From positions 1-57,450 of the forward strand of contig DAOUWZ010000004.1 of NCBI GenBank assembly GCA_030666865.1: a stretch of DNA of 57,450 nt, written 5' to 3'. Below are positions 12,238 to 57,208 of this stretch, piece after piece. Under the pieces are notes generated by a model, which was not told the origin of the DNA, ran no database searches, and was given only the letters and a program-made list of their open reading frames with translations. How positions within the stretch are numbered: position 1 is the stretch's first letter; every line of letters starts with the position of its first letter. This stretch comes from a bacterium (GTDB lineage: Bacteria; Patescibacteriota; Patescibacteriia; S139-126). The position numbers were made by a program, and so were the translations under genes.

Positions 12238-12364
12238 ACAATTATTATATCCTGAAATTTGATAAATAAAAATAACCTAATTAGTTGGTAGGTTTGAGAT
12301 GACGGTTTTTAGTTAGGGTTATTATTTATTTAATATTACAAAATAATGGTGTCTCCAGCAGGAA

Positions 12365-12388
12365 TCCCTGCCTACCGGCAGGCAGGGA
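12365..12388. repeat. P1-family GC palindrome (variant, 1 mismatch)
   Basis: TCCCTGCCTACCGGCAGGCAGGGA, just downstream of tRNA-Arg. Confidence 0.85.
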
Positions 12389-12420
12389 ACCTTAATTAAG
12401 AATTGTAAATTTTATTAGTT

Positions 12421-12495
12421 TGGTGCCCTTGCCAGGAGTCGAACCTGAATTTCGAGATCCGCAATCTCGTGTTCTATCCATTGAACTACAAGGGC
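12421..12495 (-). tRNA. tRNA-Arg (anticodon GCG)
   Basis: Manual cloverleaf: acceptor GCCCTTG/CAAGGGC, D arm GTTC/GAAC, anticodon arm CGAGA-TTGCGGA-TCTCG, T arm TCAGG-TTCGACT-CCTGG, encoded CCA. Confidence 0.8.
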
Positions 12496-24212: not shown

Positions 24213-24257
24213 ACAAATTTTAAATTATACCTGCCTGCCGGCAGGCAGGAATCCTAA
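24213..24257 (+). repeat. 45-bp direct repeat (left copy), containing a P1 palindrome at 24230-24249
   Basis: ACAAATTTTAAATTATACCTGCCTGCCGGCAGGCAGGAATCCTAA is identical to 25575-25619. Confidence 0.9.
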
Positions 24258-30730: not shown

Positions 30731-30858
30731 ATTAGTTTTTAGGTTATACCTGCCTGCCGGCAGGCAGGGGTTTTAGTTATTAGAAGATGAGAATTATTAA
30801 ATCTACAACCTGAAAACTAGCAACTAACAACTATAACCTAAAAACTAACAACTATTCT
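30731..30858 (+). repeat. SR composite repeat, copy A (P1 palindrome at 30749-30768), ending at the rpsL ATG
   Basis: A 55-nt block (30734-30788) is identical to 31290-31344. A 31-nt block (30824-30854) is identical to 31373-31403. Confidence 0.9.
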
Positions 30859-55633: not shown

Positions 55634-55719
55634 ACATGCAGTTATTTTCCCTTTTCAAGCAGGGAAAAGGAAATAGGTATTTAAATAGGTATTTTAATAC
55701 CTATTTAAATCTTGAATTA

Positions 55720-55757
55720 ACTCCGTTCTGCAGTAGCGAGACGGAGTTTTTATTTTT
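55720..55757 (+). terminator. Intrinsic terminator
   Basis: AACTCCGT-loop-ACGGAGTT followed by TTTTATTTTT. Confidence 0.7.
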
Positions 55758-55872
55758 ATAATAAAATTAATATAAAGGCTTGCATTATTTGTTGATATTT
55801 GTTATATTTATTTTGCTGTTTTTTTGGCAGTTTTTTTATATAAAATATTATTACCAGTTAATTGTTAAATGT

Positions 55873-55909
55873 CCCGCCCGCCATGCTAGTCGTAGGTGTT
55901 GCGGGCAGG
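55873..55909 (+). repeat. P3-family GC hairpin, just upstream of tRNA-Lys
   Basis: CCCGCCCGC-CATGCTAGTCGTAGGTGTT-GCGGGCAGG. Homologous to 20048-20085. Confidence 0.7.
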
Positions 55910-55921
55910 TAATAGTTATCT

Positions 55922-55997
55922 TGGGCCGTTAGCTCAGTTGGTAGAGCGCCAGGCTTTTAACCTGGGCGTCACAGGTTCGAATCCTGTACGGCCCACC
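55922..55997 (+). tRNA. tRNA-Lys (anticodon UUU)
   Basis: Acceptor GGGCCGT/ACGGCCC, anticodon arm CCAGG-CTTTTAA-CCTGG, T arm ACAGG-TTCGAAT-CCTGT, encoded CCA. Confidence 0.9.
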
Positions 55998-56004
55998 ATA
56001 AAAA

Positions 56005-56041
56005 AGTTTGTTCATCACCTAGTGGTGTGCAAACTTTTTTT
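56005..56041 (+). terminator. Intrinsic terminator after tRNA-Lys
   Basis: GTTTG...CAAAC stem with an inner CACC/GGTG pairing, followed by TTTTTTTT. Confidence 0.65.
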
Positions 56042-56184
56042 ATTTTGATTGTTTCAGGATTCGAACGGGCAGGAGCGAGTATTGAGCAGAGCGAAATAAA
56101 CGAGCGACGACCAAAGCGAGTAAGCGTAGCTTTGGGCGCTGCCCAGTACAACGAAGTTGAGTGAAGCGAAACGAGGCGGAAATC

Positions 56185-56204
56185 CCTGCCTGCCGGCAGG
56201 CAGG
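56185..56204. repeat. P1-family 20-bp GC palindrome interrupting a duplicated tRNA-Lys 3' end
   Basis: CCTGCCTGCCGGCAGGCAGG, exact, flanked by GAAATC| and |CTGTACGGCCCACCAT. Confidence 0.95.
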
Positions 56205-56220
56205 CTGTACGGCCCACCAT
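56205..56220 (+). repeat. 16-nt direct repeat of the tRNA-Lys 3' end
   Basis: CTGTACGGCCCACCAT is identical to 55983-55998. Confidence 0.9.
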
Positions 56221-56351
56221 TCGACTCGCTCCTATAAGGAGTTCGCTCATGGTCTGCAGCACTAACATGCTTTTGACCACTCTCATTTATTATCTTCGCG
56301 AGTCGAATGCCCTGAGCCTGCCGAAGGGCAAATTTAAAAATCTCTTAACCT

Positions 56352-56624
56352 ATAAAATACTTTGCATATTTAGCACGCTGTAATGATGAATCTTTATATA
56401 TTGGTTCTTGTACTAACATTGAAGCTAGAGAAATAAAAGACAATAAAGGTGAAGGTGCTCAGTATACAAAACAAAGACAACCTACAAAAATAATATATTT
56501 TGAAAAGTTTGATAGTTTGGTTGAAGCTACTAGACGAGAGAAACAAATTAAAGGATGGATTTGTGAAAAGAAAGAAAATTTAGTGAAGTATGGTCATCCG
56601 ACAAAATTTAGTAATAGTTATTAA
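56352..56624 (+). pseudogene. GIY-YIG nuclease family (UPF0213/YhbQ-like) ORF with ATA where the start codon is expected
   Basis: The in-frame translation is (I)KYFAYLARCNDESLYIGSCTNIEAREIKDNKGEGAQYTKQRQPTKIIYFEKFDSLVEATRREKQIKGWICEKKENL. A TAA lies 2 codons upstream, and no ATG/GTG/TTG is available. Confidence 0.6.
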
Positions 56625-56657
56625 TGCCTTTATTTAAGGTGTTTTTTGTTTAGGGTG
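56625..56657 (+). terminator. Weak intrinsic terminator inside a 31-nt repeat module
   Basis: CCTT-TATTT-AAGG followed by TGTTTTTTG. The module CCTTTATTTAAGGTGTTTTTTGTTTAGGGTG recurs at 57279-57309 with 1 mismatch. Confidence 0.5.
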
Positions 56658-56692: not shown

Positions 56693-57208
56693 ATGAAAAA
56701 GAAAATAAATTTTATTTTAATAAACGGTCCAATGGGTTCTGGTAAATCAACCATTGTAAAGTTATTACATCCTAAATTGAAAAGAACGGCTTTATTAGGA
56801 GGGGATAGAATTAAGTGGTTCATGTCAGATTTTAAAAGGAGTAGGAAAAATAATGAAATAGTACATAAGGTTATAATGCGAATGTGTGATGAATACTTAA
56901 AAAATGGAATCAGTATCTTACTTGATCAAGGTTTTTATTCAGAAGAAAGAGCTGATAAGTATTTGAAAATAGCAAAGAAATATAACTGTGTAATTAAATT
57001 TTATCATCTGCAGGCACCTCGTCAGATTTTATTGGATAGAATAAGAAAAAGACCAACTGCTAAAATGGCCGATAAGCCCGTACCAAAAACAAGGGTGCTT
57101 AGAAATTTGAGAAATCACAATAAGATTAAATATACTAATGCAACTATTATTGATACCTTTCAGAAAAAACCCAAGGAAGTAGTAGATTATATTCTCAAAG
57201 ATTTGTAA
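56693..57208 (+). CDS. P-loop NTPase/kinase (AAA_33/zeta-toxin-like fold)
   Basis: Walker A INGPMGSGKST in a small 171-aa single-domain protein. Confidence 0.55.
   Translation: MKKKINFILINGPMGSGKSTIVKLLHPKLKRTALLGGDRIKWFMSDFKRSRKNNEIVHKVIMRMCDEYLKNGISILLDQGFYSEERADKYLKIAKKYNCVIKFYHLQAPRQILLDRIRKRPTAKMADKPVPKTRVLRNLRNHNKIKYTNATIIDTFQKKPKEVVDYILKDL

Follow-up and report, generated by a model that had tools for sequence, protein, structure and literature searches.

A spare tRNA-Lys 3' end, split by a 20-bp palindrome, in a recurrent module at an insertion hot spot of a patescibacterial genome

Positions 1 to 57,450 of contig DAOUWZ010000004.1 (assembly GCA_030666865.1), called the window here, belong to an uncultured patescibacterium. 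The window has a GC content of 32.8% and encodes a DnaB protein that is 86% identical to DnaB of a Candidatus Paceibacter metagenome-assembled genome. Towards its 3' end lies an intact transfer RNA (tRNA) gene, tRNA-Lys(UUU), followed by a terminator-like hairpin (T1), a GC-rich segment, a 20-bp perfect palindrome (P), a second copy of the tRNA-Lys 3' end, and two cassettes with a GIY-YIG and a P-loop kinase-like open reading frame (ORF) (Table 1). In this study, we followed up a sequence-only reading of this locus, which had noticed that the tRNA-Lys 3' end recurs 207 nt downstream and that the duplicate is split by the palindrome. The duplication is exact. The 16-mer CTGTACGGCCCACCAT, i.e., the last 15 nt of tRNA-Lys and one T, occurs twice in the window and nowhere else in it. 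The two copies are separated by 205 nt, and the second begins 207 nt past the end of tRNA-Lys. None of 100 dinucleotide shuffles (0/100) contained two matches, even at 3 mismatches. The second 16-mer is derived from tRNA-Lys and is not a chance match. Excision of P in silico was claimed to restore a tRNA-like junction. This is largely the case, as GAAATC is then followed by CTGTACGG, compared with GAATC followed by CTGTACGG in tRNA-Lys; the junction thus carries one extra A, and 5' of it the similarity to tRNA-Lys is weak (~7/14).

The arrangement of tRNA-Lys, P and second copy was found in three independent runs (X1-X3), and the runs holding the locus stem from marine sediment and cold seep. 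Two of them share an identical 4254-bp contig, while the third, X3, comes from a near strain that shares this structure and differs by 3 single-nucleotide polymorphisms (SNPs) in this stretch.

Table 1. Features of the tRNA-Lys locus and its 3' flank in the window.
Feature	Position	Strand	Basis or remark
Sigma-70-like promoter match TTGGCA-16-TATTAT, upstream of tRNA-Lys	55824-55851	+	consensus scan; a match only, not evidence of function
tRNA-Lys(UUU), CCA encoded	55923-55998	+	ARAGORN; Rfam tRNA, 75.3 bits
Repeat copy 1: 3' strands of T-stem and acceptor, then ACCA and a single flanking T	55984-55999	+	exact 16-mer
T1, terminator-like hairpin and T-run directly 3' of tRNA-Lys	56000-56041	+	read from sequence; no call in terminator scan
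Inverted partial copy of the T-arm, CAGGATTCGAAC	56055-56066	+	12-nt inverted repeat; reverse complement of 55975-55986 (GTTCGAATCCTG of tRNA-Lys)
GC-rich, AGCGA-rich core, ~110 nt	56067-56178	+	GC ~50-55% (window 32.8%)
Potential long-range stem in core, GGGCAGG / CTGCCC	56067-56073 / 56139-56144		also hairpin CCAAAGC...GCTTTGG
T-loop remnant GAAATC of copy 2	56179-56184	+	read from sequence
P, 20-bp perfect palindrome CCTGCCTGCCGGCAGGCAGG	56185-56204	strandless	8 copies in the window, 0 expected
Repeat copy 2 of the tRNA-Lys 3' end	56205-56220	+	exact 16-mer
Leader and broken N-terminal region of GIY-YIG cassette	56221-56348	+	
Inverted 12-mers in or at the GIY-YIG leader	56218-56229 / 56298-56309		
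Leader hairpin	56308-56330	+	24/26 positions match L062, where it lies in the ORF and encodes CPEPVEG
GIY-YIG catalytic-domain ORF remnant, 91 codons and stop	56349-56624	+	Pfam PF01541, E 1.3e-10; not in ORF list
T2 copy 1, conserved locus terminator	56627-56657	+	31-mer repeat
P-loop kinase-like ORF (AAA_33 / Zeta_toxin-like), between T2 copies	56693-57208	+	
T2 copy 2, with orthologous terminators downstream of the tRNA-Lys spacer in L202, L003 and L002	57279-57309	+	terminator scan call

The bracket between the two copies had been described as a terminator plus a GC-rich, AGCGA-rich segment. Both parts are present as T1 and the core, and a further part has to be added, namely the inverted partial copy of the T-arm that lies between them. 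T1, together with the inverted motif, is homologous in L003 (score 60, 0/2000 shuffles), L206 (3/2000) and L014 (0/2000). The core has homologues in L165 (nhmmer E 8.6e-5) and L014 (1.2e-3). No genes were detected within the bracketed 205 bp, only spurious ORFs, and no coding trace of an integrase or recombinase was found there. The ends of the window module are not inverted repeats. Just upstream of tRNA-Lys, at 55872-55908, the window carries a GC-rich imperfect hairpin (CCCGCCCGC, 19 nt, GCGGGCAGG), the arms of which resemble those of P and the GGGCAGG/CTGCCC pair of the core. GC-rich elements likewise lie 5' of tRNA-Lys in L004 and L065.

Loci of the same clade were fetched using dnaB as anchor, and the relatives with a varying spacer have a DnaB identity of 79-86%. 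The SLT-domain neighbour, used as query for closer relatives, returned only itself. The order dnaB, SLT-domain gene, tRNA-Lys is kept across the clade, and the content 3' of tRNA-Lys varies. The distance from tRNA-Lys to the conserved terminator T2 is 54 nt in L202, ~125 nt in L003, ~600 nt in L002 and ~1280 nt in the window, with homology of T2 to these three loci reached by 0-1 of 2000 shuffles. In L202, the 54 nt are directly followed by T2 and a CitMHS transporter gene. L003 contains T1, the inverted T-arm motif and ~60 nt more before T2; in L002, this place is taken by a different GC-rich stretch and a short zinc-ribbon ORF. A plain terminator follows tRNA-Lys in L205, and T1, the inverted motif and a short GC stretch follow it in L206. 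L202 and L205 lack the whole module; in L003 and L206, T1 and the inverted T-arm are retained without a second copy. A decayed second copy in L003 was considered and found unsupported (1543/2000 shuffles). Because the interval between tRNA-Lys and T2 varies among relatives, it is an insertion hot spot, which is one of the two options that the sequence-only reading had put forward. Two other loci fit this picture. L053 and L054 (~87% nucleotide identity) form an empty/filled pair, in which an 84-nt insert is bounded by a 13-14-nt tRNA-end repeat, and L015, a different genome from that of the window, has a Phage_integrase ORF (tyrosine integrase, E 2e-32) beside tRNA-Lys. No 3' copy of tRNA-Lys is present in L207. 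On its reverse-complemented strand, L207 holds a 24-nt copy of the upstream flank and tRNA positions 1-13 (ATTAATCCTTTGGGCCGTTAGCTC), ~125 nt upstream of tRNA-Lys (2513-2587). This copy stops in the D-arm at the hairpin CCCTGACacaagGTCAGGG and is a mirror image of the window duplication.

The duplication recurs in other lineages and follows the local tRNA gene. In 29 tRNA-Lys(UUU) loci with enough flank, we searched for the last 11 nt before CCA of each gene, exact and within 300 nt downstream. Such an own-tail copy was found in 4/29 loci (window, L004, L010 and L028), in 0/29 upstream and in 0/29 as reverse complement; tails of foreign genes matched in 1 of 609 trials. In the other Patescibacteria the copy lies 70-210 nt downstream of tRNA-Lys. 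Looser own-tail copies are present in L031, L054, L056 and L014, the one in L014 being decayed. The acceptor sequences differ between genomes (ACGGCCC in the window, TGCGCGG in L004, CGTTCCC in L010 and ACGCCGC in L028), so that each copy matches its own tRNA. The inverted motif behaves similarly. Its equivalents in L004, L010, L014 and L206 follow the T-arm of each genome, and in each case the own tRNA gives the longest run of complementarity (12, 9, 9, 7 and 6 nt). The closest parallel is L004, whose DnaB is 68% identical. There, tRNA-Lys is followed by a terminator, an inverted T-arm copy (GGGATTTGAACCC), ~110 nt of GC hairpins and then the second copy, which reads GGGTTTGAATC-P-CCTCTGCGCGGACCA and precedes a terminator. 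The palindrome is the same, its T-loop position is the same, and the spacing is again 205 nt. Comparison with related genomes gave the hot spot and the parallel in L004; it also showed T1 and the inverted T-arm conserved without the repeat. The second copy belongs to a recurrent small structured module at the hot spot and is not a random remnant.

Palindrome P is found far beyond this locus. All 8 copies in the 57-kb window are intergenic or in tRNA fragments. A scan of the Joint Genome Institute (JGI) metagenomes for AATC followed by P gave at least 120 contigs, and P alone yielded 42 copies in 35 viral stretches. The GC content of contigs bearing P ranges from 0.27 to 0.68. The sequence-only reading took tRNA-Lys and its duplicate as a second filled/empty pair for the palindrome. 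This holds, and five further pairs were found. In all six pairs of an intact tRNA and a partial copy (window, L004, L094 with tRNA-Ala, L112, L133 with tRNA-Ala and L170 with tRNA-Arg), P is an exact 20-bp insertion and nothing is duplicated or lost. Further copies lie in pseudo-tRNAs (L087, L117, L147 and L115). On viral contigs, P is found inside tRNA-like sequence as well, in the D-loop of L239 (515; GGTA-P-GAGC) and in the variable loop of L232 (2284) and L209 (8616), both times as GAGG-P-TCGCCGGTTCGAATCC. In no case does the functional tRNA itself bear P. Away from the tRNA pairs, P often sits between short direct repeats of 6-14 nt, so that the result on target duplication is mixed. We conclude that P is a discrete, sequence-invariant unit of 20 bp, distinct from the module core. 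The sequence of P was not found in the literature searched.

Two simple rules for P were tried and abandoned. A position always 3' of AATC or GAATC fits the T-loop cases, however this rule was imposed by the AATC-plus-P search pattern. The 42 viral copies, which were collected without such bias, show no preference for AATC, the commonest flank being GAGG (7/84). In the window, AATC adjoins 2/8 copies of P, and only two of 754 AATC sites carry P, both in T-loops of tRNA 3' fragments. A role of P as core site of a recombinase that separates cassettes is ruled out by the copies at 30749, 31305 and 31899 in the spacers of the rpsL-rpsG-fusA operon. Each of these is embedded in a repeated spacer of ~60 nt (GGTTATA-P-GGTTTTAGTTATTAGAAGA) upstream of rpsL, rpsG and fusA, respectively, a placement inside a highly expressed operon that resembles that of repetitive extragenic palindromic (REP) elements. 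The window holds other noteworthy copies. At 12367, P with 1 mismatch splits a fragment that is like a tRNA 3' end (GGTTC-P-GATTCCTGCTGGAGACACCA; 12346-12400, - strand). The fragment sits 34 nt downstream of tRNA-Arg(GCG) (12421-12495), and its acceptor strand is mismatched to that gene (~11/18); it is thus a palindrome-split fragment of another or older tRNA. The copies at 24230 and 25592 have identical flanks (TTTTAAATTATA-P-AATCCTAA), are 1362 bp apart and flank a 317-aa secreted-protein ORF on the - strand, with a GC-rich CGCTTCGCTTCATTGCTTCTGGGATGACAG repeat after the second. In runs X1 and X3, a loose end at window position 56204 leads to another copy of P that abuts TATCCAGTTGAGCTACAGGTGCG; read in reverse complement, this is a tRNA 5' portion that stops in the D-loop. 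In L138, L160, L121, L148 and L142, P lies within copies of a widespread repeat family (GTCATTGCGAGCGAA..GCAATC), right after GCAATC or GAATC. P is also not the only element of its kind. Other perfect mini-palindromes are located at the ends of truncated tRNA fragments (TCCGCCAGCTGGCGGA in L170, GTCCCGCCGCGGCGGGAC in L056) and inside the L004 module (GGGAAAACCTAGGTTTTCCC). A second small hairpin, ..GTCCGCCTCTGG(C/T)(A/G)GAAGC.. / TTCGCCTCTGGCGGAA, recurs in L054, L056 and L134 within unrelated inserts beside tRNA-Lys and beside P, which suggests that several families of mini-palindromes exist.

Short palindromic repeats are known from other bacteria. REP elements and their doublets (REPINs) are species-specific and mobilised by REP-associated tyrosine transposases (RAYTs) of the HUH type. 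P resembles them as a short, GC-rich, multi-copy and extragenic sequence, with three copies in ribosomal operon spacers and no target duplication at the tRNA sites. It differs from them in that it is a perfect 20-mer, keeps one sequence in distant taxa and in viral contigs, occurs mostly as a singleton and lacks a fixed flanking tetranucleotide. Rickettsia palindromic elements are 100-150 bp long, restricted to their lineage, and survive in genes, including RNA genes, where an extra hairpin is tolerated. P shares with them the survival of a palindromic repeat inside gene-derived sequence. However, it has only 20 bp and is found here in redundant or pseudo-tRNA copies and not in a functional tRNA. 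The exact addition of 20 bp without duplication at the six tRNA/copy pairs also sets P apart, at these sites, from transposons and miniature inverted-repeat transposable elements with a fixed target duplication.

We propose, with a probability of roughly one half, that the locus harbors a spare tRNA-Lys 3' end in a hot-spot module, which was derived from or maintained by recombination and was later invaded by P. The second copy would be a partial spare of the resident tRNA-Lys 3' end, from the 3' half of the T-loop to one nucleotide beyond CCA. It would form the distal edge of a non-coding, hairpin-rich module of ~205 bp, composed of T1, the inverted T-arm, the GC-rich core and the T-loop remnant. 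Potentially, the copy was made, or kept in register with tRNA-Lys, by recombination at the tRNA 3' end. A candidate route is site-specific recombination of the attachment site (att) type, in which the recombinase would be provided in trans, as it is for other non-autonomous elements flanked by att sites. Template switching between hairpins is the other candidate and might also homogenise the inverted repeats. The comparison of paralogous sequences shows that P is a separate mini-element and that, at these sites, its 20 bp are gained exactly and without target duplication. Since the spare copy would be dispensable, it could accept P, and P probably persists there for this reason. Beyond the second copy, two more cassettes follow. 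One is a GIY-YIG gene that has degenerated, the other a kinase gene with the duplicated terminator on either side.

Several observations weigh against this proposal. According to the ORF list, no recombinase is encoded in or next to the module. No alternative, empty or excision junction was present among the assembled contigs of X1-X3, although contigs drop rare variants. The repeat length varies from 11 to >36 nt across loci and does not indicate a single fixed stagger. The repeats are perfect and lineage-specific, whereas the module interiors have diverged almost beyond alignment, so that re-creation, gene conversion or selection is needed. The first ~70 nt in the bracket, T1 and the inverted T-arm, are shared with L003 and L206, which lack the repeat. 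This part therefore predates the split from these relatives, and the module is not simply foreign DNA between two att sites. Finally, L165 shares the identical left flank GAGGCGGAAATC before P and then continues with a different tail. This raises the possibility that P is the module's own terminal part and did not arrive later.

Tyrosine integrases insert genomic islands and prophages at the 3' ends of tRNA genes, which leaves direct repeats at the left and right attachment sites (attL/attR). The window repeat is reminiscent of such islands: it equals a tRNA 3' end (16/16), the tRNA is intact, the site is a hot spot, and an integrase is found at the same tRNA in L015. In contrast to them, the bracket measures 205 bp, is free of genes and shares its left part with repeat-less relatives. 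The extra inverted T-arm, the recurrence of the small architecture in distant lineages and the absence of an excision junction among the contigs are further differences. Smaller att-flanked elements are the cis-mobilisable elements (CIMEs) of Streptococcus thermophilus, kilobase-scale, non-autonomous remnants for which mobilisation by a related integrative and conjugative element has been demonstrated. Like CIMEs, the window module is flanked by att-type repeats and lacks an own recombinase, and it possibly arose by tandem accretion at one tRNA/att site. Unlike CIMEs, it has a size of 0.2 kb, and its mobility is putative. A casposon was described that integrates beside the T-psi-C-loop segment of tRNA-Pro and duplicates 15 bp of its target (PMC5137440). 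The window likewise has a direct repeat of 15-16 bp at a tRNA 3' end, and the palindromic T-arm is part of the target. However, the bracket contains neither Cas1 nor terminal inverted repeats, the length of the repeat is not constant across loci, and it lies inside the tRNA, whereas that of the casposon lies mostly beyond it.

A functional role of the module appears unlikely to us. The module and the copy might form a unit that co-evolves with tRNA-Lys, either a structured RNA or a DNA element. Its 5' motif would pair with the T-arm and its 3' tail would mimic the 3' strand of tRNA-Lys, with possible roles as processing or termination device or as decoy. Direct copy and inverted T-arm motif both track the resident tRNA in several lineages, and the architecture is conserved, with a terminator after the second copy in L004, L010 and L014. 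The low number of SNPs in X3 (3 over 55700-56470, compared with 19 in the GIY-YIG 3' half) is consistent with such a unit. However, the fold of the window module alone is no better than that of mononucleotide shuffles (z -1.0/-0.7), that of the 301-nt region is unconvincing (z ~-1.8 on both strands), and the strong folds of the L004 and L010 modules are equal on both strands. A consensus scan gave no promoter-like site between T1 and the module, and among the RNA runs searched none contained the tRNA-Lys locus. GGATTCGAAC, together with the CCA tail, had raised the idea of a transfer-messenger RNA (tmRNA) or another tRNA-like RNA. This was rejected, as ARAGORN called no tmRNA, Rfam returned only tRNA-Lys itself, both at gathering thresholds and at E<=10, and the acceptor 3' strand has no 5' partner within the module, so that no acceptor stem can close. 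Moreover, the module is absent or eroded in the close relatives L202, L205, L003 and L206, and the copy is decayed in L014.

We regard as similarly improbable that the repeat is a one-off scar, left when an integrase-bearing island or prophage inserted at tRNA-Lys and was then deleted almost entirely, leaving attL, attR and ~200 bp. In favour of a scar, a directly repeated tRNA 3' end is the classic signature of att sites, the tyrosine integrase of L015 lies at tRNA-Lys, and tRNA gene fragments left by integrated elements are well documented and have been reviewed (PMC9897764). The sequence-only reading had accordingly offered a decayed integrative element as its other option. This turned out to be too simple. 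L003 and L206, which have no repeat, carry orthologues of the left ~70 nt, L004 has its parts in the same order and at a similar size (205 and 207 nt), homologous modules exist in L165 and L014, and the bracket is gene-free, without an integrase coding trace. The far copies of the tRNA-Lys tail expected of large integrated elements are missing within the fetched flanks, and no recombinase accompanies the module.

The two ORFs announced downstream of the second copy were confirmed as a GIY-YIG domain and an AAA_33/Zeta_toxin-like kinase. The GIY-YIG frame has no ATG, GTG or TTG start. An N-terminal piece (VECPEPAEGQI and a stop) is encoded in another frame ~26 nt upstream, and the protein is a bare catalytic domain without a second, DNA-binding domain. 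It was considered whether the second copy is the 5' boundary of this cassette, brought in together with a piece of tRNA end, e.g., by break repair after cleavage. We think this still less likely than a scar. GIY-YIG genes do adjoin tRNAs, 130 nt after tRNA-Lys in L065, 10 nt after tRNA-Met in L183, just upstream of tRNA-Lys in L021, and as two copies flanking a P-split pseudo-tRNA-Arg in L147; the sample is, however, biased towards regions with tRNA genes. T4 SegB provides a precedent, as it is a free-standing GIY-YIG homing endonuclease whose gene lies between tRNA genes (PMC2988022). The window gene resembles segB in being lodged near a tRNA gene, but its product is a catalytic domain of 91 residues with no start codon and a frame-broken N-terminus. 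A leader that starts at the tRNA end as in L065 was followed as a weak lead only, since the local alignment is not significant (193/2000 shuffles), and the same is true for the upstream part of L062 (301/2000). Furthermore, L004, L010 and L028 carry the duplication without a GIY-YIG gene. In the near strain of X3, 19 SNPs are concentrated in 140 bp of the GIY-YIG 3' half, where two alleles (depths 28 and 80) are present, compared with only 3 SNPs in the 770 bp upstream (55700-56470). This pattern suggests exchange with other GIY-YIG copies. The kinase-like ORF constitutes a second cassette, bounded by a direct repeat (T2) of the insertion point.

A chance resemblance, for which it speaks that T-loops are conserved and near-palindromic, so that short matches such as GTTCGAATCC recur, is practically negligible, because the 16-mer spans the lineage-variable acceptor strand and not the conserved loop, shuffles gave no second match, own tails (4/29) clearly differ from foreign tails (1/609), and the same phenomenon is seen with different sequences in other lineages.

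It is tempting to speculate on a broader process, although we hold it to be rather doubtful. In Patescibacteria and their viruses, the hairpin-forming regions of tRNA genes might be the target of an uncharacterised type of recombination. Such a process would generate fragments truncated in the T-, D-, anticodon or variable loop, which are capped or split by small perfect palindromes (P with the sequence CCTGCCTGCCGGCAGGCAGG, TCCGCCAGCTGGCGGA, GTCCCGCCGCGGCGGGAC and GGGAAAACCTAGGTTTTCCC), and it would keep the spare 3' end and the inverted T-arm in register. The small and abundant GIY-YIG nucleases beside tRNA genes may be involved. Textbook integration does not explain why the spare 3' end and the inverted T-arm should each track the tRNA gene of their own locus. 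Nor does it explain a letter-identical P of 20 bp in distant Patescibacteria, in contigs of higher GC content and in viral contigs. Each of these two facts could hint at a mechanism of mobile DNA that has yet to be described. Such fragments also confuse tRNA annotation and the prediction of att sites in metagenome-assembled genomes. Should the pattern hold, tRNA-Lys would be more than an att site in these reduced genomes: it would be a place where modules, mini-palindromes and single-gene cassettes accumulate while the tRNA stays intact.

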